The notes: generated by a model not told the origin, from the letters alone. DNA of 64,000 nt from Candidatus Bathyarchaeota archaeon (GCA_963775685.1 CAVZJV010000014.1:1184001-1248000); one strand, 5' to 3'; shown: positions 1 to 12,014, counted from the first letter of the stretch. Translations and numbers: made by a program.

Positions 1-1
1 G

Positions 2-169
2 GGCGTTGCTGAGTTGCCAGTAGAGGACTTGACGTTAGAAGATTTTGTGGAGGCGAATGCTGTTATTCCAGTTTTCGTTACCTGCAAAACGGAAAACGGT
101 TTAGTTCCATTAACTGACTATGATTGTCTAATTTCTAAATTTGAGGATTCGCAGAAACAAATTGCATAG
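2..169 (+). CDS. 3' end of a hypothetical protein running off the left edge
   Basis: Open frame GVAELPVEDLTLEDFVEANAVIPVF...KQIA ending in TAG at 167-169. Confidence 0.5.
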   Translation, partial: GVAELPVEDLTLEDFVEANAVIPVFVTCKTENGLVPLTDYDCLISKFEDSQKQIA

Positions 170-234
170 AAACAGTTATGCATTTTCGTCTCAGACTGCT
201 CCGTATTTCATAGACAACAAACACTCTTTTAATA

Positions 235-435
235 TTAAAGATCGCTTTTGATGCTGTGCAACCGTCGATAAAAAAGCATATCCACAAGCACCAATAATAC
301 TAATGCGATCAAAACCACAGCCAAGTATTCGGGGCGTCCACTGCCTGTTGAAACACGAATACCCAATTCTATACCATAAACTCCAATGATGATTGTCACG
401 ATTACGGTTACTAAAAATCCTATTTTTGCGTTCAA
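235..435 (-). CDS. small membrane protein with 2 TM helices
   Basis: 66-aa ORF with two hydrophobic stretches and a basic C-terminus. Confidence 0.55.
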   Translation of the reverse strand: MNAKIGFLVTVIVTIIIGVYGIELGIRVSTGSGRPEYLAVVLIALVLLVLVDMLFYRRLHSIKSDL

Positions 436-648
436 AGCGGCTTCTTCTAATATTTACGTTTGCGTTCACTTATTTCTCTTTCTGAATATAAACATTCTAA
501 GTCTCACAAAGAAGAGGGAAAAACCGATAGGAAGGCTTAAAGAAACAAGTCAATATTAAACTAAAGGAGCAAAGAAATTTGAAAAAACACAGCGACAACT
601 TATTCACTCTTGACTTTTTCGGAGAAGCTTGGTTTTAGGTGAAAATAT

Positions 649-822
649 ATGAAAGATTTTAAGTGTCCAATATGTGGCGGACCAACTGAAAAGGTTTGGG
701 AAAACGCAACCAGAACAAGATATGGAATGAGATGCATAAAAGGCCACGAAAACACAAGTAACAAATCAGATGGTTCAAAACAGTACCCGGTAATTCTTGT
801 TTCAAGTGAAGATCTTGTCTAG
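649..822 (+). CDS. 57-aa CPxCG zinc-finger microprotein
   Basis: Manual translation MKDFKCPICGGPTEKVWENATRTRYGMRCIKGH...; AGGTGA RBS at 637-642. Confidence 0.65.
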   Translation: MKDFKCPICGGPTEKVWENATRTRYGMRCIKGHENTSNKSDGSKQYPVILVSSEDLV

Positions 823-918
823 TTAAGAATGGCTGCCTTTTTTGCTGGAAAATACTGCAGGGAAATTGTTATTTGATTTCTGCTGACTTCCGCGTATTTT
901 GTTATTGATTCTTGCATC

Positions 919-1911
919 TTATTTTCGGAATATTGGATCTGGATCGTTTAGGCTGCCATATAGTGCGTGTGCAGATTCTCTGCAGCCTCCCTTGCATTTG
1001 CCAATTTTGTCGCATCCTATGCACATCTTGGGTGTGTAACGCAATTCCACAAATCCTTTGATATAATCGGAGTTTTCATAAATTTCTTTAGGATTTGATT
1101 CCAAACAATTACCCAAAACTTGAGGAGAATGATTGCAAACTCTAAGACCCCCCGAAGGATCGATGGCGCAGTGAATACCTTTTCCTGCCATGCAGCCTTC
1201 TTTAAGAAGGAACTTGTAATTTCGCAATCCCTCAAGACATAACGGTGTTGGAGTACCCACCAGAGCAGGAATGCCATATTCATCACTTGCTTCCTCTGTA
1301 AGATTTAACATTTGCAAAAGCTCATTTTCATTAAAAGCCAAGTCAGTATTCTCTAGTCCTTTTCCACCAGGTAGGAAGCGATTTACCAAAACGGAGTTCA
1401 TGTCCAATCCAGCGGCAAGTGCAATAGTATCTTTTAGTTCAAAAAGGTTTAACCGATTAACGACAACAACAGCCGAGACTGAAACCTTGTAATCCATCAA
1501 GGCTGTTCTTCCCAGAATTGCTTTCTGAAAGTTGCCTATTTTGCCGGTTAGTTTATCATGAGTTGCCTGCAGTCCTTGCAGAGAAATCTGAACGACTTCA
1601 AAGTTCTGGGCTATTTGGCTGGAGAATTTTGATGCGAGTATTCCGTTAGTTAATAGAGAATTTTTAAAACCATTCGCTTTTGCGTATGCCGCTATTTCAA
1701 ACAGGTCTGGGTTTAGGAGGGGTTCTCCGCCGGAAAAACCCAGGGTATCTACGCCCCATTGTTTTAGTTTATCGATAATGGAAAAAAAGGAGGTTTTTGA
1801 GAGAACTTTTTCTTGGGGGTACTGGTGTTTGTTGGAGGTTCGCCAGGCGTTGTAGCAGAATTTGCATGCGGCATTGCATGAGTAGCCGACTTCCAAGATG
1901 ACGAATTTCAA
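919..1911 (-). CDS. radical SAM/SPASM enzyme (rSAM-1, PqqE-like)
   Basis: CNAACKFC, FSGGEPL, and SPASM cysteines CMAG..HCAIDPSGGLRVC..CIGCDKIGKCKGGC. Confidence 0.92.
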   Translation of the reverse strand: MKFVILEVGYSCNAACKFCYNAWRTSNKHQYPQEKVLSKTSFFSIIDKLKQWGVDTLGFSGGEPLLNPDLFEIAAYAKANGFKNSLLTNGILASKFSSQIAQNFEVVQISLQGLQATHDKLTGKIGNFQKAILGRTALMDYKVSVSAVVVVNRLNLFELKDTIALAAGLDMNSVLVNRFLPGGKGLENTDLAFNENELLQMLNLTEEASDEYGIPALVGTPTPLCLEGLRNYKFLLKEGCMAGKGIHCAIDPSGGLRVCNHSPQVLGNCLESNPKEIYENSDYIKGFVELRYTPKMCIGCDKIGKCKGGCRESAHALYGSLNDPDPIFRK

Positions 1912-2199
1912 TTAGCACTTCGCCTGAAGAGCAGCGATCTCTTTTAGGTGGGCTTCAAAGTGTGTGATGGCAACCTTGGCAAGTTTCGGGTCTAGTTTTT
2001 TGTTTTCAGCGAGTCGTTTTATTATGTTGATGCGTTCATTGAGGTGTTTCGCTATTACCCAAGGATGAGGGTCGGGTTCAGCAACGACCGTTTTGGCGAT
2101 TTCTGCATGATCAATTCCTTTGTTTAGGACTAGTTCCCACATTGGCGGAAAATAACAGATTGGCGGGCGGATGCGTATTCTATCAAAATTTTCGCTCAT
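1912..2199 (-). CDS. 95-aa protein, candidate substrate or partner of rSAM-1
   Basis: Its stop codon directly abuts the TTG start of rSAM-1; motifs PPICYFPPMW and EPDPHPW. Confidence 0.75.
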   Translation of the reverse strand: MSENFDRIRIRPPICYFPPMWELVLNKGIDHAEIAKTVVAEPDPHPWVIAKHLNERINIIKRLAENKKLDPKLAKVAITHFEAHLKEIAALQAKC

Positions 2200-2867
2200 A
2201 AAAACCGCGTTAAATAAAATGCTTCATCTAAATATTAAAGCTTGAGGTTTCCGATTTCTTGATTGCAACCAAGCTCGATAAGTTAAACTCTCAAAGTGAT
2301 AGCCCTGAATTTTAACATGCCTCCTAAGGATTGGAAAGTCAATTCAGTTTTTGGTTTTAGTTCACTTTTGTTTGTTCATACATCATTGAGACGGTTATGC
2401 GTTTTCGGCTGAGACTACTGCAGATTTCGTTATTTATTCTTGTATCTTCTCTACCTTTGCTTTGCGTAATGAAAAAGAACGAATTTCCAGTTCTTCATTC
2501 TCCTCTAATTATCTGAGGGATAACTTGCTGAGCTGTAGACGGGTATTTTTGTATTGGAAGCTTTAAGCTTGCATATGGAAGTTCCACGGTTACTCGAGTT
2601 TTCCACCTCACATGGGGCATCTTCTCTTTATTGTATTTGAATTGTTGGAAGTTGGAGCGAGAAGTAGAAACAGAAGTAAATCTGGCGTTTTTATAGCAAT
2701 AGAAGCCACTGACAATGTTTCTGCCGCAACTGTCGCAAGGACATAGATAAATCAACCATAAAATTCGTTAACTTATCGTTCCTCGATTTTAAAAACAGCA
2801 TATTAAGGAAAATGGCTATTTTGGTTAGCTAACCGTTCTATTTGTGTTTGAGGCTTTTTAGAATAAT

Positions 2868-4068
2868 CTAAAAGATTGGTTTTATTTTTGAAAATAGGTA
2901 TTCTTGTAAGTTCGGCTGAAAAATATCTTGATTCTCAAAATAATTTTCTGCATAACACCCTCCAAGATAATCTCCTGCTATTCCTTTTTTTGAACAAGCA
3001 GACCGTAGCTTTAATCCAGAAACAAAGTCTAAGCGGCTATTTAAATTATAAATACCGTATTTAGTATCACCAAGTTTGGATAGTAATTGGCGATTATTCA
3101 AAGCTAAAACCCTACCACAGGCTGATATTTCTCCATTTGTATTCACACAAATCCGGCTTGTACCCGCTTCACAAACAAAAGAATTACTTTTTTTTAATTG
3201 CTCATGTTCGCCAATTTGTATGTCCCCACTTAACTTTATGTCGTTGCGCGACGAGTTTTTGTACCACATATACAATTTTTCTAAATTATGAACAAATTTT
3301 TCTCGGTCAATTAAAGGCCATTCCACACCGGTGGCATGCCCGATGATAAAGTCATTTACGCCTAACTTGTAAAGCCCTAAGACATCATCATATAGATTGG
3401 GAACGTTTTGGGGGGATACTGTCATTTTTGTGCCAATCCAGGGCTGACTTTCTTTTAATAATTGCATGTTTTTTATAGCTTTTTCGAAAGTACCTCTTCC
3501 AGATTTATCAATTCTGAATCTGTCATGAGATTCTTTTAAACCATCAATACTCAAAAGAACTTTAATTTTATGGGAAGAGAAAAAATCTGTCATTTCGTTA
3601 TTCAACAATAGGCCATTGGATGTCATGTCAAATTCAATTGATTTTTGTCTAACTGCAGCCCTCTCTTCGGCATAAATAGTTATTTCTTTTATAAGATCAA
3701 ATTCAAGAGTTGGTTCTCCTCCAAAAAAGAGAATAGTTAGATTCGTTTCATTTGCAGAATAATCAAGAAGAAGGTCTACAGCAGATTTAGCGATTGTTTT
3801 TTCCATGGATTCAGATGTTCTACAATTTTTTTCAAAACAATATTTGCAGGCTAATTGCACCTATTTGTTAGAATCAAGTCAAGTTTTGTTATAGGTGGAA
3901 AAATAGAAGAATTTGTATATAATATAATTTTGTAGAGTAATCTTTGACTTTCTTCGGATGAAATTCCTAGCTCCTCTCTTAATTTGCATATTAAGTCGTT
4001 CGTATCAGGAGAAGAACCAGCAAAAAACTCCTAGAAATCTGTTCGATAAAAAGTTCTCTGTCTATCAT
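2868..4068 (-). CDS. radical SAM/SPASM-twitch enzyme (rSAM-2), broken by two single-base frameshifts (~4031 and ~3854)
   Basis: Joined frames read MIDRELFIEQIS/EFFAGSSPDTNDLICKLREELG...LDLILTNRCN/LACKYC, restoring CxxxCxxC; FFGGEP, SIDG and CEAG..ICVNTNGEISAC follow. Confidence 0.88.
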
Positions 4069-4085
4069 GAATTAGATCTAGCCAT

Positions 4086-4298
4086 CTAAGGATGTAGTTT
4101 GTGGGTATAAGCATCGCTTGAGCACTTGTGAGGAGCCACGCAGTTATATACGTTCGAGCATTTGAATTTTAGAGTACACTTAAAGCCAAGAGCTCCGCTC
4201 TCCGCGATAGCCTTGACCGTTTCATCAGAACTCCCTATCTTTGCTGCAATACTTTTGGCAATTTTTTCTAATTCTTCCTCAGAAATTTTTTTTGACAA
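4086..4298 (-). CDS. Cys-rich RiPP precursor candidate A
   Basis: Helical leader ISEEELEKIAKSIAAKI and core FKC-TLK-FKC-SNV-YNC-VAP-HKC; 17 nt upstream of rSAM-2. Confidence 0.8.
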   Translation of the reverse strand: MSKKISEEELEKIAKSIAAKIGSSDETVKAIAESGALGFKCTLKFKCSNVYNCVAPHKCSSDAYTHKLHP

Positions 4299-4302
4299 TG
4301 TC

Positions 4303-4545
4303 TTACCTCATAAGTTTTTTTGTAAACCCAGTAAAGCTATTCGAGCATTCAAAGTCATCACTACAAGAAAACAAACTAGCTTGGCAAGTAAAAGAACTAG
4401 CGTCACATGTATACTTAGAAGGTGTGTTACATGGGGTTGGTAATTCGCCTGCACGAAGGGCAACTGTTCCAATTTTTCCTTTTAGTTTCTCTGCAACTCT
4501 CGAAGCTATACGGTCAATTTCTTCGTCGGAAAGCATTTTTCTCAC
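4303..4545 (-). CDS. Cys-rich RiPP precursor candidate B (paralogue of A)
   Basis: Leader LSDEEIDRIASRVAEKL and core with YTC, FTC, FSC, FEC; 4 nt from precursor A. Confidence 0.8.
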   Translation of the reverse strand: MRKMLSDEEIDRIASRVAEKLKGKIGTVALRAGELPTPCNTPSKYTCDASSFTCQASLFSCSDDFECSNSFTGFTKKLMR

Positions 4546-4739
4546 CTTTAATGTTAATCTTAATTAATTTATCTCATCCTTGACTTTAAGGAATTGTTGT
4601 TGTAAAAGCACAGTCACATCGTCTTTTATCTTTAATCGTATTTATTATGAAACAGGTCGTGCGGTTTTATCGAAGGCTACGGAGAAGAAAACGTAGAGAG
4701 TGAAGAAATTGATCCAAAAGGTTTCAGCTGCTTTGAAGA

Positions 4740-4768
4740 GGGCAAAGAAAAAGGGAAGGGAAAAGGCC
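4740..4768 (-). terminator. pyrimidine-rich archaeal terminator after the 193-aa gene
   Basis: Minus strand reads GGCCTTTTCCCTTCCCTTTTTCTTTGCCC about 20 nt after the stop codon. Confidence 0.45.
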
Positions 4769-4788
4769 TTACCTAACTCTAAGTAGCA

Positions 4789-5370
4789 CTAGGCACCTTT
4801 TCCTATTTCATTGGCTACGTCTTTGAGTTGTTTCTTAACTATATTGCGCATTTGGACCTCGCTAACTATTATTCCACTCTCTTTTGCAACAGCATCAGCT
4901 AAAGTAAGACCTATCGCGGCACTCATGGCAGCATTAATAACCGCTTTAGAAACCTTGTTTGCGATCTTATCAATTGACGAAGTAAAGTCACCATTATCAC
5001 ACTTATCACATGCTGGAGTGGGACCTGTACCACACGACCAACATGCTGGAGTGGGACCTGTACCACACGACCAACATGCTGGTTGAGGGCAATCTTCTGC
5101 TACAAGAGTCTCGCCGAAAGCTTGATTTAACCATTCCACATATTCAGGCATCGTTTTTTCAACGGCTTCATGTATGGCTGATTGCAGTTTTGTATACATT
5201 TGAGGATCAATCTTTTCAATTGAAGGGCTCCTCGAAAGGAGTTCCCGAAAACGTTTACTTTGCGCTTCAGTGAGTTTTTTAGCAGAAACTTTTGAGACCG
5301 ATTTTTTTGTTGAACGAGAAACACCTTGTCTTTTTAATTTTGCTTTAAGCGCTTTTTTAACTTTTGCCAA
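4789..5370 (-). CDS. 193-aa protein with a Lys-rich N-terminus and an internal Cys/Trp repeat core; candidate substrate of rSAM-3
   Basis: (PACWSCGTGPT)x2 followed by PACDKCDNGD; directly downstream of rSAM-3. Confidence 0.8.
   Translation of the reverse strand: MAKVKKALKAKLKRQGVSRSTKKSVSKVSAKKLTEAQSKRFRELLSRSPSIEKIDPQMYTKLQSAIHEAVEKTMPEYVEWLNQAFGETLVAEDCPQPACWSCGTGPTPACWSCGTGPTPACDKCDNGDFTSSIDKIANKVSKAVINAAMSAAIGLTLADAVAKESGIIVSEVQMRNIVKKQLKDVANEIGKGA
5008..5082. repeat. perfect 33-bp tandem repeat (2 copies plus 9 nt)
   Basis: ACATGCTGGAGTGGGACCTGTACCACACGACCA at 5008-5040 and 5041-5073, then ACATGCTGG. Confidence 0.95.
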
Positions 5371-5563
5371 AAATAATCACTAATATGACCTATGAAATGT
5401 CAGTTATTTATATTTATTGTTAATGCAACCTGCTCCAGAAATCAGGCTGCCGACCCTTCAATTTTTGGCTTCTATTGAATAACTTTACTGATTCTAACGT
5501 CAGCGTTCTTTATCGAAATCATTCAAAACAAATCCTTGAAGCAAAACGTTAGAGAAGGCATTG

Positions 5564-7048
5564 TTAGAGTTTGCGTTGTATTCGCTTCCGATTCTTTCTT
5601 TTGGAACTATTTTGTGATTTTGTTAGAAAATCATACGCCAATAACAATTTCAAAATTTCATTTTGGAAAGCACAGAAATAGTCTTCTTTTATGCCTAATT
5701 GACCAGTTTTGATATAGACATCGTATGCGCATGCACCACCGCATATTCCAAGTGCAGGGCAATTCATACATTCTTTGTTCTTTAGAGTCCCAAATTCAAA
5801 CCATTTATAAAAAAGTGGTTCTTCTTGAACTTTTAAATCATCTTTAATTGGAATTTGATATTTCCCCGACGGGTAGAAGGCTTGGCAAGGTCCAATTGTT
5901 CCTGAGGGAGAAAAGAATATTTGCTGACCAAATGCCGGGCAATCATATACGTGGAACATCTCTCTAAAGAAATATCTCGCCCTTCGCTTGTCTATCCGAT
6001 CTTCAAACATATGCAATTCTTTTGCTTTTAAGTACGCCTTAAAGAGATGATGAGCAAGTTGTTTTGGATCTGGCACTTCGAATTCAGTAGAGTCCTTGAT
6101 TCTAGTAAGCAAGTTAAAACCTAAACTCTTAATTCCCAATTTGTGAAAGAAATCTACTATTTCCTCCGCATATTCATAGTTCTGCTTGGTAATCGTGCAG
6201 GATATTCCCACATTTACGCTAGCTTCATTCAAGAGAGTTAGAGCTCTGAGTGTAGAATTGAAGGTTTCGATTCCTTCAGTAAAAACACGATTCCTATTAA
6301 TTCCATACCAACCATCAAGAGATAAGCCAACACTAACATTGTTTTCTTTAAGTTTTTTCGCTAATTCCTTCGTTACAAAGCTTCCATTCGTTACGCATGA
6401 AAAGGTAAACTTATTCTTGACTGCCCTCTCAAGCCTTTCGATTATATAAAAGATGATTTCGCTACTACTAAGAGGTTCACCTCCGTAAAATGTGACTTTG
6501 TACTCCTTAACTTCTTTTGCTGCTGTAATCAGAGCATTTATGACTTTGTCGGCTACCTCCTTAGACATTTTTACGCTCGGTCCTTTAAGAGAATTCTCTA
6601 TGAAGCAATAGCCGCATCTAAAGTTGCAGTAATCCGTTACTAAAACGTAGGATAGAAATGGAGACGGCGTCTTTCTAAGCATTTTGTCTGCCAATGTGCA
6701 AAAAACTCTCTCTCGATCAAAGCTTTGGGGCACAATAAATTCGAGATTAAGTAAGCTCTTTACAGATTCGCTAAGGCTATCCGTAGCCAGACCGGTTAAT
6801 ACAGAGATATATTCATCATTTTTTAGGTATACTTTCTTTAACGTCAAAGAATGGAAAAGACACTTCGTATCGTCATTTATGTTAAATATGTGAACGAACG
6901 GAGAAAACGTTAATTGATCAGATCCTTCTCGATGCGATTGCTCAATTGTCGCCTTTGCATTCAAAAGAGAACCATGATCTTTCTTAAGTTGCTTTTTGCT
7001 CGAGTTAGAAAGCGGAAAAGAAACCACCATGAATTCCAAAACCCTCAA
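5564..7048 (-). CDS. radical SAM/SPASM peptide maturase (rSAM-3) with an N-terminal extension
   Basis: CNFRCGYC, FYGGEPL, SLDG, CPAFGQQIFFSPSGTIGPC, CMNCPALGICGGAC..YFC; the true start may be ~7030. Confidence 0.92.
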   Translation of the reverse strand: MRVLEFMVVSFPLSNSSKKQLKKDHGSLLNAKATIEQSHREGSDQLTFSPFVHIFNINDDTKCLFHSLTLKKVYLKNDEYISVLTGLATDSLSESVKSLLNLEFIVPQSFDRERVFCTLADKMLRKTPSPFLSYVLVTDYCNFRCGYCFIENSLKGPSVKMSKEVADKVINALITAAKEVKEYKVTFYGGEPLSSSEIIFYIIERLERAVKNKFTFSCVTNGSFVTKELAKKLKENNVSVGLSLDGWYGINRNRVFTEGIETFNSTLRALTLLNEASVNVGISCTITKQNYEYAEEIVDFFHKLGIKSLGFNLLTRIKDSTEFEVPDPKQLAHHLFKAYLKAKELHMFEDRIDKRRARYFFREMFHVYDCPAFGQQIFFSPSGTIGPCQAFYPSGKYQIPIKDDLKVQEEPLFYKWFEFGTLKNKECMNCPALGICGGACAYDVYIKTGQLGIKEDYFCAFQNEILKLLLAYDFLTKSQNSSKRKNRKRIQRKL

Positions 7049-7256
7049 ATTATTAAAAGTTTTCCCAAGGTTCTTAAAGCAATTTCAGTTATGACAAATG
7101 CAGTTTTCGATTACTTTTCCTTCTATCATATTTTTTCTTTGAAAATCCTCAAGAGGCAGAGAACCGCTAAACCGCTTCTCCAACTTTACTTCATTTAGAG
7201 TATAGCTACCTATACCACACTTAGTGACCGAAAACTATCCGCTTGGTCCCAACGTT

Positions 7257-7766
7257 TTACAATGTCAAAATCCGTAACTTGTAACCCTCCAGTTTCAACT
7301 TTTCAAAGATGCGTTTCTGATCAGCCTCATCTCTACACTCAATTATTATCTCATAGGTTCCAGGGATAGATACCGGAATCTCATGGTCATCCAAATCCTC
7401 AGGAATTTTCTCGCCGACGGATTCAAGGAGCGACTTCAAATCTTCTTTTTCGCCTTGTTCAATTATGCGCAGATATTCGGCGCTGTCCAACTCTTTGTTG
7501 TGTTTACCCCTTAGCTTGTTGAGCACCTGCCGCAGAAGCCGGCGATCAACATCTTTAACTGGCAAGCGAATGACGCTGCACTCAGTCATGCCAAGCTCCT
7601 TCATAGCGGTAACACGCTGCTGCCCATCTGCCACCAAAAGCTCACTGTTGGTGACGACGGGAACGATGTCCCCCCATCGCTTAATTGAAGCTTTCAAGCG
7701 GTCAAGCTGCGCCAAGCTCATCATGTTAGGATTGTCTTGGTCAAACTTGAGATCGCTGATTTTCAC
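7257..7766 (-). CDS. ParB/Srx-like N-terminal domain protein of the type found in proviruses
   Basis: NPN..LKASIKRWGDIVPVVTN..VADGQQRVTAMKELG..LNKLRG; the N-terminus probably extends to ~7834 through frameshifts. Confidence 0.8.
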   Translation of the reverse strand: MKISDLKFDQDNPNMMSLAQLDRLKASIKRWGDIVPVVTNSELLVADGQQRVTAMKELGMTECSVIRLPVKDVDRRLLRQVLNKLRGKHNKELDSAEYLRIIEQGEKEDLKSLLESVGEKIPEDLDDHEIPVSIPGTYEIIIECRDEADQKRIFEKLKLEGYKLRILTL

Positions 7767-7829
7767 TGCGCTCCGACATGGGAATCGGAATTTCTTTTCG
7801 ATTTTCGCTCGGTTTCACTTGCTCGGTCA

Positions 7830-8631
7830 CTCATATTTTCAGATTCTCCGTAACGTTTTCTGTTGTCAGCAATTGGTTAATTTGGACATTTTGGGATATT
7901 TTCTTAAACCAGTCGCACTGGTTCCGCACACGTCGGACATTTTTCTTTAAGGTAACGTGCGTTACGTGCGTCAGTCTCCGCGTTTTCCGCTTGTTTCTTG
8001 CTGTTCTTCTAACTCTTCTTGCCTAGCTTGCTCGGGTGTCCTGTTAGCGATAAACTGTTGAATGTCCTCGGTTGTTTTGAAAACGTGATGTTGGTCACAG
8101 TAGCGTTGAAAACTCTCAGGAGTAAATAGGTCATGGTTCCAAGTTTGCATAAACGGGAGCTAAACGCCTTTCCTGTTCGCCTTCGCATAGTTCCCAATAG
8201 CCAGGCGTGTTAAAGACTGCTTCTTCCGCGTCAAATTGCTCTTTGAACTTGCGGGTTTCTTCTATAAGCCAATAAAACCGCGTGTAGAACACCCAATTAG
8301 CCATAGGGTCTTTATACGTTACAAAAGCATCCGTGAAGGTTTGGAAAATCTCCAGTATCCTAGCCATAAAGCGATGGTTGGCTGCGTCCACAATTGCTTG
8401 GTCGTCTGAAGATAACGGGATATAAGCGGTTTCTCCCCGTGATAATGGCTTGCCTGCATTTCTTCTGCGTGAGCATTGCAAGATTTGAGTTGCTCGTCTA
8501 TGTAATTCGTTTTCGGCTCGATCTAACTCTGTGTCTCCGTTTTCCCATGTTATTCTTGTTGTGCCTTCTTCGGGAAGTTCAGGTAACACATTTTTTTCTA
8601 ATTCATGCAGTTTCCTGCTTAGAATGTTCAT
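7830..8631 (-). pseudogene. hypothetical protein with several frameshifts
   Basis: The 166-aa ORF continues in shifted frames: HDLFTPESFQRYCDQH...EELEEQQ / AETDARNARYLKEKCPTC / CDWFKK. Confidence 0.5.
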
Positions 8632-8912
8632 TTCTTCTTATCCTCCGGTTTCGGTATTAATATGCTGTTCTTGAGCTTCTCCTCTAACGTTAACACCCGA
8701 AGCTCCAACTCCTCATCCTTTAGCAAGGGACCGTAGGCTGAGACTGCTGAAACTAAAACTCTTGCCCAACCCTGCTTAGCTCGGTCACTGTTTCCGCCTG
8801 TATGAATTTTTTTGTGGGACAGGCTTAATACACCGTCTAAAACGCGAAATAACGTGTTTCTGCGATCCTTTGTTGAGCGGTTTGATGTTGGTTTCTTCGC
8901 AGCTTCAGCCAT
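8628..8912 (-). CDS. 94-aa hypothetical protein, possibly terminase-small-subunit-like
   Basis: ATGA overlap with the next ORF; C-terminal DEELELRVLTLEEKL coiled coil. Confidence 0.6.
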   Translation of the reverse strand: MAEAAKKPTSNRSTKDRRNTLFRVLDGVLSLSHKKIHTGGNSDRAKQGWARVLVSAVSAYGPLLKDEELELRVLTLEEKLKNSILIPKPEDKKK

Positions 8913-9015
8913 AGCTCACACCTTCTTCTCTCCCTCGTGCTCTTTGCTTACGCTTCGCAAGCCGCCAATACTCACGCAACTCAGCCGAATGCTTAAAGCT
9001 CTTGCAATTGTCCAT
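8905..9015 (-). CDS. 36-aa basic microprotein
   Basis: MDNCKSFKHSAELREYWRLAKRKQRARGREEGVSYG; overlaps the next start by 8 nt. Confidence 0.5.
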   Translation of the reverse strand: MDNCKSFKHSAELREYWRLAKRKQRARGREEGVSYG

Positions 9016-9341
9016 GACAAATGCTGGTTCAGTTGAACCATTTAAAAACAGAATAATAATTGTAAGAATGCCAAGTCAGAAGTTAGAAGAGAGGGCAAGT
9101 TACAGCAGAAAAACAGTAGAGTCTTTTTCCTTAGCGCGCTTACCGCTTTTTCCAGAGCTGCCTACACGAAATAGCCCTATCTTAAAAAAGCCCTTATAAG
9201 AATTAACATATAACATAGGTACGAATCCATCGAACCCGCCAATCTACGGTTTTCCCGCCTCTTTATATCAAACAATCGTTTTAATTGAGTATTGAGAACC
9301 CAAAGTCTGTATGCTTCTCAACAGCAGAATTGAAGCTGAGG

Positions 9342-10275
9342 ATGGTGTTTGGCATGATAGAGACTGAGAACCTTACCAGAAAGTTCGGGAACCTAACTGC
9401 GGTCAACAATCTAACCCTTCGCGTAGACGAGGGTGAAGTCTTCGGTTTACTTGGACCCAACGGGGCAGGAAAAACCACCACGGTGAGAATGTTCTGCTGC
9501 CTGATATCTAAGACAAGCGGCACTGCCAAGGTTGGCGGTTACGAGGTCGGCAGTGAAGAAAATGCCCGGAAGATTAGAAAAATCATCGGGCTCGTCCCAG
9601 ACAACGTAGGGCTCTACGAATCGCTCACTGCCTACGAAAACCTGGACTACTACGGAACACTTTACAGGCGAACTGACACCCAGCGCAAAGAAAGCAATGA
9701 GTACTTCCTGAAGCTGCTTGGGCTTTGGGAGAAAAGAGACGTTCTTGCGGGAGCATTCTCCAAGGGAATGAAACAGAAGCTCGCTATAGCCCGCGCTAGT
9801 CCACGACCCCCAGATAATTTTCATGGATGAGCCGACTGCAAACCTCGATCCCGAATCCGCTAAAAAAGTGAGGGAATTCATTCTCTCCCTGAAGAAGGAA
9901 AAGAAAACCATCTTCCTCAATACGCACAACCTCGATGAAGCCCAGAGAATCTGTAATAGAATCGGTATCTTAAATACCCGCCTGATGGCAGTGGGCTCCC
10001 CTCAAGAACTCGAACAATCCATCCATGGAAGGAAGACGGTGATCCAGCTCAGACAAGTGAACGAAGCGATTCTGGATTCCCTCAACCGACTCAAAATAAA
10101 GAACTTGGTTCGGGAAGGTAACAAGTTAACTGTCGATGTCGCCAATCCCCAAGAGGAGAACCCAGAAATGATAAATGCAATTGTTAAGGCTGAAGGACGC
10201 ATCGAGACGGTAACAGTGACTAGCAGTTCGCTGGAAGACACGTACTTGAAACTAGTAAAGGAGAACCCCCAATGA
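9342..10275 (+). CDS. ABC exporter ATP-binding subunit, frameshifted at ~9795
   Basis: Walker A GPNGAGKTT and signature FSKGMKQK; the shifted frame gives LVHDPQIIFMDEP (Walker B) and the H-loop NTH. Confidence 0.9.
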
Positions 10276-11003
10276 CCGCTTGGTTACCATGGAAGATAGC
10301 ACAGAAAGAACTCAAAGTAATCAGACGAAAGAAAAGCATTATCTTCTATACTGTTGGGCTTCCCCTCCTAATCGCAATTGTTTTCTCACTTGTCCTTAAG
10401 AGCCAAACAGCCAACGGAATTCCTAATACAATCGCACTAGGCGCTGACTCAATCGTTTACCTCTTCGTTATTTTAGCAACAGTCCTTCCCAGCACGATTG
10501 CAGCATACAGCATAGTGGGGGAAAAAGTCGAAAAGACATTGGAACCGTTGCTGGCGACTCCGACGACTGATGGCGAGATTCTGCTGGGAAAAAGCATCGC
10601 CGCCTTCATACCGCCTATTCTGTCCACATGGACAGGGGCATCAATCTTCATGGCAGCAACGGACTATTTCTTGCACAATCCAGGGTTAGGCTACTACTAT
10701 TTTCCCAACTGGAACGCCGGCGTTATGCTGTTGCTTCTGGCGCCGCTTGCAGCGGTTCTTAGTATTGAAGTAGCAGTGATTGCATCCGCGCGGGTAAGCG
10801 ATGTTCGGGGTGCAAACCAGATTGCAGGTCTCATGTTTATTCCGTTTGTCGCTGTCTTCTTTGTGGGAGTCGAAGGGATTTTCTCATTCAGTATCGGTAA
10901 CCTATTGATCTTCGCCGCCGTTGTTTTGATCGCTGACATAATTCTGTTCTTCTTAAGTAAATCTACATTCAAGCGAGAAGAGATACTAACAAAATGGAAG
11001 TAG
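10272..11003 (+). CDS. ABC-2 type permease
   Basis: SIVGEKVEKTLEPLLATP..EILLGK motif, 6 TM helices, ATGA overlap with the ATPase. Confidence 0.92.
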   Translation: MTAWLPWKIAQKELKVIRRKKSIIFYTVGLPLLIAIVFSLVLKSQTANGIPNTIALGADSIVYLFVILATVLPSTIAAYSIVGEKVEKTLEPLLATPTTDGEILLGKSIAAFIPPILSTWTGASIFMAATDYFLHNPGLGYYYFPNWNAGVMLLLLAPLAAVLSIEVAVIASARVSDVRGANQIAGLMFIPFVAVFFVGVEGIFSFSIGNLLIFAAVVLIADIILFFLSKSTFKREEILTKWK

Positions 11004-11031
11004 CAAAGTTAGAGAAGGGAGGTTCAAAAAA

Positions 11032-11235
11032 ATGACAAAAGTAAAGTTTGAAATAGGCGAGACTGAAAAACATACCATTATTCTTAATGTGAACCCTCTT
11101 CTAAAATACACCGCCATAGAAATGGATGGCAAAAAAATCATTAATGAATCACACTTTTTGTCATTGCCAAAAAAGTTCCAGGTTGAAGTAATAAACACCG
11201 AAAAAAATTACGCTAGGCTAAATGGAAGTATTTAG
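11032..11235 (+). CDS. hypothetical protein, possibly truncated
   Basis: GGAGGT RBS; FEIGETEKH motif partly repeated before the sequence degenerates. Confidence 0.5.
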   Translation: MTKVKFEIGETEKHTIILNVNPLLKYTAIEMDGKKIINESHFLSLPKKFQVEVINTEKNYARLNGSI

Positions 11236-11520
11236 ACTTAGACACTAAAAATAGAGGTGAGAGTAACGACTGAAGTAACAGCTGTGATAATTATCGTTGT
11301 AACCATTGCTATGATAGTAATAGGTTATTTTCTTATAGGACCACCTGGTAACCGCAGATGGAATAAGAGAAAAAATTAATACTGAACCGTTCTCGTCTAC
11401 CCAAGTCACTGCAGATGGCAAAACTGTAGATGGCAAACACACTCAAAAAGCCTGAAAGTGCATCGCTAGCCCAAAAGGTTGAAATTTAGCCAACTAACCG
11501 GTAATCTTTTCCGCTGAACG

Positions 11521-11673
11521 CTATTGGGAAAAAGCAGCGCGCACTTTAGCGCCGAACAACAAACAAAACGGCTTCTCCTCAGCTGCAAACGGCAAACTAT
11601 ACCGCAGGGCATCGGTCGCATGATCATTTTCCTTGACGTCTTCTCGATACTCCAACAACTCAATGATAAGGTT
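11521..11673 (-). pseudogene. C-terminal remnant of a viral terminase large subunit
   Basis: Manual translation NLIIELLEYREDVKENDHATDALRYSLPF...; DHxxDALRY is the terminase nuclease end motif; the similarity does not extend further upstream. Confidence 0.7.
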
Positions 11674-11720
11674 ATAAGGTAAGAAAAATGATTTGCAAGA
11701 ATACCTGAAGCTAACCTTGA

Positions 11721-11933
11721 CTATTGGTTTTTTGAATCATTAACCGCTTTTTCTAAATCAACTAAGTCTAAGAGAATACGGTTAGTTATAGAGTTAAACT
11801 TCTCAGGATGACGCTTCTTAAACTGAGTAAATCGATAACGGTAACGCATAAGGCTGTTCCAGCTTTTCTTTTCTGTTGTGCTGCCATCGACAAGTAAGCT
11901 TGGAAGCTTACGCTTAACCCTATCAGCATTCAA
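11721..11933 (-). CDS. hypothetical protein
   Basis: 70-aa ORF with an AGGAGGT RBS upstream. Confidence 0.6.
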   Translation of the reverse strand: MNADRVKRKLPSLLVDGSTTEKKSWNSLMRYRYRFTQFKKRHPEKFNSITNRILLDLVDLEKAVNDSKNQ

Positions 11934-12014
11934 GAAAGAAAAACCTCCTTAATAGTCATGACAGGTGGAAGAGAAAAAAGGGGAAAGTATAGTAAAAATA
12001 CTTGTCTGGAGGGG

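Follow-up and report, generated by a model that had tools for sequence, protein, structure and literature searches.

A 6.1-kb segment (positions 919-7048) of a 64,000-nt stretch of DNA from a Bathyarchaeota archaeon (the window; G000:C14:1184001-1248000, in a genome of 3.06 Mb and 14 contigs) encodes, all on the minus strand, three radical S-adenosylmethionine (SAM) enzymes, here called rSAM-1, rSAM-2, and rSAM-3, and four small proteins, P193, P80, P70, and P95 (Table 1). We consider it probable that these seven open reading frames (ORFs) form three independent, horizontally shuffled radical SAM maturation cassettes lying side by side, in each of which the enzyme acts on the neighboring small protein or proteins: rSAM-3 on P193 (cassette A), rSAM-2 on P80 and P70 (cassette B), and rSAM-1 on P95 (cassette C). 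Judged from sequence comparisons, the pairing of enzymes and substrates is well supported. The cassettes are novel families of a type of system that is already known, and the most unusual part is cassette C. All seven ORFs were found at the coordinates given in an initial annotation of this DNA, and none of them is a chance ORF because conserved homologs of every one exist in other genomes.

Pairing of each enzyme with neighboring small proteins

The initial annotation had set each enzyme beside its own candidate substrate, and this pairing was kept, not refuted, when enzyme homologs were followed across genomes. A P193-like gene lay right after the rSAM-3 ortholog in 8/8 fetched loci. Orthologs of rSAM-3 (65-69% identity) were present in 5 of 24 other genomes of the genus, and two further, damaged copies were found in G000 itself; no ortholog at this level of identity was found among 16 genomes of other families. 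When species-representative genomes were scanned with a P193 profile, 24 loci were obtained (six of them the same places as loci of the rSAM-3 ortholog set), and an rSAM-3-type enzyme was encoded just upstream in 22 of these (the exceptions were L035 and L043). The one rSAM-2 ortholog found had both P80 and P70 homologs beside it; all three genes of cassette B, including an intact enzyme of 401 aa, occurred in G108, the one genome with them among 100 others of the genus. Cassette C, with an enzyme 88% identical to rSAM-1, was present in 3/100 of these genomes (G010, G023, and G045), with P95 encoded directly upstream each time and, in G023, as two tandem copies. Two distant rSAM-1 homologs (32-33% identity; one in G098 and one in G426, a genome of another family) were each preceded by a 60- to 61-aa ORF carrying the P95 motif, here in the form MCYYPPE.

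The locus had also been read as a single three-module system. This part did not hold, given that the three cassettes occur apart elsewhere. The closest copy of cassette A (L031) had unrelated flanks, with neither B nor C within 6 kb; the locus in G108 contained B only, and those in G045 and G010 contained C only. DNA similarity to other loci ended at the cassette borders: at 7153-4729 for cassette A (94.8% identity to L031 over exactly 2.44 kb, and nothing else common), at 4567-2865 for cassette B (compared with G108), and at 2256-927 for cassette C. On these comparisons, the locus is best described as three independent cassettes, each found alone elsewhere. It seems very improbable to us that the three enzymes form one integrated pathway, acting together or in sequence on shared substrates for one product family. 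Such a pathway would fit the co-directional arrangement of seven genes within 6.1 kb and the situation in G023, in which A and C are again on one contig, ~20 kb apart; however, every cassette occurs without the others (B in 1/100, C in 3/100, and A in 5/24 other genomes of the genus), and a repeated piece of a mobile element lies between B and C.

Further genes accompany some copies. Sister cassette A loci (L014 8613-11983, L009-L013, and L015) contain three genes that are absent from the window: one for a 529-aa radical SAM enzyme of the B12-binding type, one for another repeat protein, and one for a 367-aa protein in which a P193-type leader is combined with a SAM-dependent methyltransferase domain. 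Beside the cassette A copy of L031 (7271-10289), genes of a contractile injection system (CIS) were noted (tail sheath, gp19-type tube, and AAA ATPase with CIS tube domain). A gene for a 386-aa flavin adenine dinucleotide-dependent monooxygenase-type protein is located directly upstream of the P95 gene or genes, on the same strand, in G023 and G010 (L028 10842-12002 and L029 9574-10734) and is absent from the window.

Table 1 Features of the cassette region (window coordinates)
Feature	Position	Strand	Description
rSAM-3, cassette A enzyme	5564-7048	-	494 aa; N-terminal extension of ~130 aa, radical SAM core, complete SPASM Cys signature
P193, candidate substrate of cassette A	4789-5370	-	Lys-rich tail, conserved helical leader, Cys repeat core, conserved C-terminal helical part
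P80, candidate precursor 1 of cassette B	4303-4545	-	77-80 aa; helical leader, core with 5 conserved Cys, aromatic-x-Cys register
P70, candidate precursor 2 of cassette B	4086-4298	-	70 aa; P80 paralog, 4 conserved Cys
rSAM-2, cassette B enzyme	2868-4068	-	Broken as assembled by two 1-nt deletions; intact ortholog 401 aa
Repeated mobile-element piece between cassettes B and C	2377-2560	.	Copies at 70-76% on C14, C5, and C4
P95, partner or substrate of cassette C	1912-2199	-	Disordered N-terminal arm with invariant PICYFPP motif, C-terminal helical hairpin
rSAM-1, cassette C enzyme	919-1911	-	330 aa; without N-terminal extension; CxxxCxxC at 12-19; complete SPASM Cys signature
ParB/GmrSD-N-like gene, upstream of cassette A	7257-7766	-	Multicopy in genome; also on element-like contig C4
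872-bp direct repeat, right copy	8250-9113	.	85.5% identity; left copy outside the window at -7318..-6452, joined to integrase-like C-terminus

Placement of the radical SAM enzymes

All three enzymes matched the Pfam Radical_SAM model (PF04055) above its cut-off (73.7, 42.9, and 67.3 bits vs. 29.5). The CxxxCxxC motif was located at residues 141-148 of rSAM-3, 12-19 of rSAM-1, and 70-77 of the rSAM-2 ortholog; in rSAM-2 as assembled it is split by a frameshift, and it is intact in the ortholog. The SPASM signature was examined with a regular expression for seven C-terminal Cys (C..Gx4C, Cx2Cx5Cx3C, and C), and the full set was present in rSAM-3 (C370..C388, C427-C440, and C459) and rSAM-1. The claim of three radical SAM enzymes stood; the full SPASM signature was absent from rSAM-2 and its ortholog. 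The Pfam SPASM model matched none of the three enzymes, even at E 5 on the C-terminal parts alone, and no PqqD or recognition-domain Pfam match was obtained on the enzyme termini, also at E 5.

The top NCBIfam matches of all three enzymes were peptide or protein maturases, and every one of these matches was far below its cut-off, in agreement with the initial statement that the locus could not be assigned to a named class. For rSAM-3, the best match was the FibroRumin radical SAM enzyme (TIGR04136; 180.4 bits vs. 400), with PapB (NF047865) scoring 140.6 vs. 340. The best match for rSAM-2 was PapB (202 bits vs. 340, aligned over 15-330 of 330), and QhpD-type, CcpM, and SCIFF models scored 136.9, 132.7, and 125.4 bits, respectively. 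For rSAM-1, the GeoRSP radical SAM model ranked first (TIGR04303; 109.5 bits vs. 400); the other top models were NirJ/AhbD, PqqE, and MftC (96.5 vs. 381 and 83.2 vs. 265), and PapB scored 59.4. Against TIGR04463, the CrpC family (cut-off 525), rSAM-3 scored 109.6 bits and rSAM-2 scored 71.1 bits. The nearest solved structure of rSAM-3 was CteB (5wgg/5why, E 4.8e-23), which was also nearest for the rSAM-2 ortholog; SkfB and PqqE were nearest for rSAM-1. The identity of 5WHY as CteB is stated in PMC13692751.

The candidate substrates

None of the four small proteins matched a Pfam or NCBIfam family, and the ESM Atlas gave no usable match for P95 or P193. The P193 family is tiny: a word search of 5.8 billion proteins returned 9 proteins, and a search of 1.84 billion returned 18 representatives at E ≤ 0.001, one of which (P0049) was an unrelated repeat protein. 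The P193 profile matched 3/401 genomes of the class, all in one genus, and 0/361 genomes from 130 other genera. Common to the family are a leader, which is helical and lies around EKLDPxxYAKLQS and PEY, and a helix at the C-terminus. The core between them varies and consists of one to four units of CPxxxCSSCGND or PxPACWSCGTG, of a different Cys-rich stretch (P0042), or of a single Cys (P0040). In the window, a 33-nt unit occurs three times at 4990-5088 and encodes PACWSCGTGPT repeats. The AlphaFold2 model of P193 contains helices at 35-85 and 130-191, and residues 86-129, the Cys region, are unstructured.

P80 and P70 are paralogs with a common leader (S-D/E-E-E-I/L-x-x-I-A). Their 5 and 4 Cys, respectively, were kept in 9/9 sequences or halves, and an aromatic residue, or His in one position, precedes each Cys by two residues, except for the first Cys of P80. 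In two proteins, P0031 and P0032, a P80-type half and a P70-type half are naturally joined in frame, in the order leader-core-leader-core. A P80 profile scan located P80 and P70 homologs in tandem on a metagenome contig of 1.2 kb, the sole contig found and one without the enzyme. The aromatic-x-Cys repeats that had been proposed for three of the substrates were thus recovered as a register in P80 and P70; in P193, the conserved feature of the family is CxxC-G, the Trp being limited to a subgroup and the aromatic residue being absent from the sister family.

P95 was 64-91% identical over 18 close homologs and conserved over its whole length. It is not Cys-rich: C15 is the sole conserved Cys, and the C-terminal Cys was not conserved among the 20 aligned rows. 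C15, Y16, P18, and P19 were invariant in 20/20 rows (CY[FY]PP motif). The P95 model (pLDDT [predicted score of the local distance difference test] of 68) shows residues 1-14 as a disordered arm and residues 46-65 and 71-94 as a helical hairpin and is without beta-sheet; no Foldseek match to the PDB was obtained at E ≤ 0.001. When modeled as a complex, rSAM-1 and P95 reached a score of 0.81, compared with 0.01 for the best control; that mark was reached by 58/80 solved complexes and 2/110 mismatched pairs. At least 37% of contacts were common to the runs, with a partner pLDDT of at least 61, and the predicted interface places the P95 hairpin (52-81) on rSAM-1 residues 114-170 and 212. The modeling supports binding of P95 to rSAM-1 through its hairpin.

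The same complex model would suit an accessory subunit, and we weighed the reading that P95 serves rSAM-1 as PqqD serves PqqE or MftB serves MftC, with the real substrate encoded elsewhere. P95 is about the size of a PqqD partner and is conserved over its whole length, its hairpin is set firmly on the enzyme surface in the model, and rSAM-1 resembles enzymes of the PqqE, MftC, and GeoRSP type, which use such partners. In these systems, as in cassette C, a short SPASM-type enzyme without its own recognition domain goes with a protein of ~95 aa encoded immediately upstream. P95 differs in having neither the PqqD signature nor any Pfam or NCBIfam match, and its model has neither a beta-sheet nor a significant fold match. 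In addition, its most conserved element, the invariant Cys-Tyr motif, lies in a disordered arm and is kept even in the 60-aa versions; the tandem copies in G023 are usual for precursors; and no other conserved small ORF is present within the shared DNA segment 927-2256. An accessory role appears unlikely to us, and P95, unlike PqqD-type partners, looks like a substrate itself.

If P95 is a substrate, cassette C could represent a new class, a suggestion that we make tentatively. Its SPASM-type enzyme would lack a recognition element of the kind used for peptides made on ribosomes and modified post-translationally (RiPPs); the substrate of 60-95 aa would be recognized through a C-terminal helical-hairpin "follower"; a single invariant Cys-Tyr (CY[FY]PP) would be modified on the disordered N-terminal arm; and the pairing would be kept across at least two families of Bathyarchaeia. 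In parallel, members of the P193 family would be precursors of the leader-core-follower type, and sister loci would use their leader a second time, joined to a methyltransferase, for docking.

Predicted mechanism and chemistry

In cassette A, rSAM-3, whose radical SAM core is predicted to stand between a recognition-type domain at the N-terminus and a SPASM domain holding two auxiliary clusters, would bind the helical leader of P193 and cross-link Cys residues of the unstructured CxxC-G repeat core, most likely as ranthionine-type thioethers. Of the three enzymes, rSAM-2 of cassette B most resembles PapB and CteB, and its set of C-terminal Cys is reduced; it would cross-link P80 and P70 likewise, at the 5 and 4 Cys that these carry in a constant aromatic-x-Cys-x3-4 register. 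In cassette C, rSAM-1, which is without a recognition domain, would dock on the C-terminal helical hairpin of P95 and modify, within the flexible arm at the N-terminus, the invariant Cys-Tyr of CY[FY]PP. By analogy, Cys-based thioether cross-linking is the most likely reaction in every cassette because of the nearest relatives of the enzymes, the invariance of the Cys, the CGND (C-x-x-D) units of the sister P193 family, and the precedent of CrpC and CrpA. As had been stated initially, no protease lies inside the cluster (a peptidase domain was absent from all seven ORFs in Pfam searches); because no exporter is consistently linked either, P193 and P95 may stay protein-sized.

A different chemistry was considered, in which no thioether is made. 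The aromatic-x-Cys of P80 and P70 and the W-S-C of P193 would then be triceptide-type motifs, forming three-residue cyclophanes in which a C-C bond joins the aromatic ring to the second residue after it, or some other radical SAM reaction would occur. In favor of this, an aromatic residue standing two positions ahead of the Cys was conserved in 9/9 P80/P70 sequences or halves, and models of AmcB, YhhB, GrrM/OscB, XyeB, and FxsB were among the weak matches. However, thioether-type models scored far higher for rSAM-2 (PapB, 202) than did the cyclophane maturase models XyeB (TIGR04496; 53.5 vs. a cut-off of 450), YhhB (NF041707; 78.3 vs. 445), and GrrM/OscB (TIGR04261; 56.8 vs. 310), and the structure nearest to the rSAM-2 ortholog is CteB. 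Cut-offs were also unmet for rSAM-3 (YhhB, 94.1 vs. 445; GrrM/OscB, 93.4 vs. 310). Moreover, the invariant elements are the Cys themselves, and the sister P193 family is without the aromatic residue. We regard this alternative as rather improbable and retain thioether formation as the preferred chemistry.

Several observations weigh against the mechanism proposed here. We infer the substrate role of the small proteins, the thioether chemistry, which residues act as acceptors, and what becomes of the products, and the chemistry is predicted for all three cassettes. No enzyme reaches any NCBIfam family cut-off, so the transfer of function is loose. Both rSAM-2 and its ortholog have five C-terminal Cys and are without Cx2Cx5Cx3C, and the rSAM-2 gene is broken as assembled, with one of its two breaks inside CxxxCxxC. 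The P193 of the window lacks the Asp of the C-x-x-D motif, having G instead, whereas the sister family has CGND, and its AlphaFold2 model is of low confidence (pLDDT of 48.9). The conservation of P95 over its whole length fits a folded subunit as well as a substrate, and the complex score is the model's own confidence, obtained from shallow custom alignments (5 and 20 rows). Finally, neither a protease nor a dedicated exporter is consistently linked to the cassettes.

Comparison with known systems

Bacteria are well known to mature Cys-bearing peptides with radical SAM enzymes. Literature searches found no paper on radical SAM modification of peptides or proteins in Bathyarchaeota, and CrpC/CrpA (2026) was the one enzymatically tested archaeal case found. 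According to that report, CrpA of Methanococcus voltae, a repeat protein, receives ranthionine links from CrpC, the CrpA leader is common to the paralog CrpB, and a C-x-x-D motif is linked to thioethers (2026, PMC13692751). Cassette A is like that system in having an archaeal radical SAM enzyme of SPASM type, with a putative recognition domain at the N-terminus, adjoining a protein-sized candidate substrate, a leader-like N-terminus and a repeated Cys motif in the latter, a paralog that shares the leader, and no linked protease. C-x-x-D type units are present in the sister P193 family (CGND), although not in the P193 of the window. P193 differs in having only 2-3 short repeats, which are located between two helical parts and not C-terminally. 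The score of rSAM-3 against TIGR04463 (109.6 vs. 525) and the lineage, Bathyarchaeota, are further differences. The arrangement typical of TIGR04463, a large Cys-repeat protein adjoining the enzyme and a leader common to a paralog, was nevertheless observed, as a mechanistic likeness and not as family membership.

Cassette B is most like PapB/PapA (freyrasin) and CteB/SCIFF. PapB is the best family match of rSAM-2, CteB is the nearest structure for both the rSAM-2 ortholog and rSAM-3, and the precursors likewise combine a small size with a helical leader and a number of evenly spaced Cys. The core of PapA consists of Cys-x3-Asp units, whereas the register in the window is aromatic-x-Cys-x3-4. 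Scores were below the cut-off, rSAM-2 is without Cx2Cx5Cx3C, and cassette B has two precursors, which are fused as leader-core-leader-core in some relatives. The FibroRumin model (TIGR04136), although below its cut-off, was the best for rSAM-3 and aligned over 48-463, the N-terminal domain included; that family is defined by computation only.

The locus adds three enzyme-substrate pairs from Bathyarchaeota, each backed by comparative genomics. The putative substrates are outside every curated family, and the small proteins were found almost only in one Bathyarchaeota genus, between whose genomes the cassettes appear to move as two- or three-gene units. Their predicted layouts are unusual: a core between leader and follower (P193), a leader-core-leader-core fusion (P80::P70), and a docking hairpin combined with a single-Cys motif (P95). 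All pairs are small and defined and lend themselves to direct co-expression tests.

Frameshifts in rSAM-2 as assembled

As listed in the assembly, the rSAM-2 ORF covers 2868-3860 (330 aa) and is without the first Cys of CxxxCxxC. The gene starts at the ATG at 4068, and alignment to the intact 401-aa ortholog of G108 (80% identity) revealed two 1-nt gaps, near 4030 and near 3854, the latter being the one inside CxxxCxxC. Read cover consisted of three short contigs from three runs. One of these, a 180-nt contig from an independent public run (X3; depth of 2.8), spans 4003-4181; it carries an additional base behind 4030 that brings the first break back into frame, and it differs at one other place. 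The second site (~3854) is outside the three contigs. The breaks may be assembly errors, strain variation, or recent decay, and cassette B may be inactive in this genome or the assembly may be wrong. An in-frame TAG upstream of rSAM-2 was considered as a sign of pyrrolysine or another code and was dropped; the ortholog alignment shows plain 1-nt gaps.

These breaks, the split of a neighboring ABC ATPase by a 2-nt gap, the stops in other cassette A copies of the same genome, and the truncated integrase-like and element-derived pieces of the region raise the question of a decaying relic, in which a dead mobile element carries the cassettes as cargo and they no longer function in this genome. Yet rSAM-3, P193, P80, P70, P95, and rSAM-1 are uninterrupted and have retained all their motifs; rSAM-2, if its two indels are set aside, has an open frame and 80% identity to its ortholog; and the absence of the first indel from an independent contig points to a possible assembly error or strain variation. 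Decay of the whole locus is distinctly unlikely in our judgment, and we continue to favor functional cassettes. Several orthologous genes in related genomes were also split by frameshifts or stops (L015 6879-8295; L014 10296-10696; L032, L036, L041, L051, and L052), so that indels, real or assembly-derived, are frequent in these genomes.

Mobile surroundings and neighboring genes

The locus had been placed on a mobile island. A direct repeat with integrase-like pieces, repeated element pieces, low G+C content, and a patchy distribution support this in part, but no ends of an element were defined and the integrase match was below the Pfam cut-off. G+C content was 0.35-0.41 over window positions 1-8000, compared with 0.426 for the contig. 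Within the 872-bp direct repeat (85.5% identity) are a 94-aa ORF and the N-terminal portion of an ORF resembling integrases (C14 -7650..-6452, equal to L055 12350-13548, and window 8131-9113). The left copy alone continues into a recombinase-like C-terminus, within a 236-aa ORF that gave subthreshold matches to Phage_integrase (25 bits vs. 27.1) and to an archaeal phage integrase model (19.7 vs. 27); beyond this ORF lies a DNA methylase. This one-sided continuation recalls the split integrase genes at the ends of archaeal integrated elements. A search for exact repeats in 1-12000 gave no plausible att sites.

The ParB-like gene has four other copies in the genome, and the pieces 42-498, 2377-2560, and 7144-7553 recur on other contigs, including contig C4 (19.8 kb). 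Together, these data support an accessory region rich in mobile DNA but do not delimit a single element. Contig C4 is itself mobile-element-like and, by eye, contains replication-type and restriction-modification-like ORFs as well as a ParB-like gene followed by ATPase-like and acetyltransferase-like ORFs; it has three pieces in common with the cassette region. The ORF that precedes P80 and P70 on the metagenome contig resembles, by eye only, the acetyltransferase-like ORF of C4.

To the right of the cassettes, an ATP-binding cassette (ABC) transporter ATPase is divided between two ORFs (9285-9830 and 9823-10275), with a 2-nt gap near 9790 relative to the L014 paralog, and is followed by an ABC-2 permease (10272-11003). 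An ABC exporter was rejected as part of the system: besides the window, ABC genes were near 1/37 loci (L014), many of which had flanks of 6 kb only. On the other side of the window, RNA polymerase subunit A, which is split into A' and A'' in many archaea, is encoded by a single ORF of 1277 aa with Rpb1 domains 1-5 (L055 2942-6775; window -17058..-13225).

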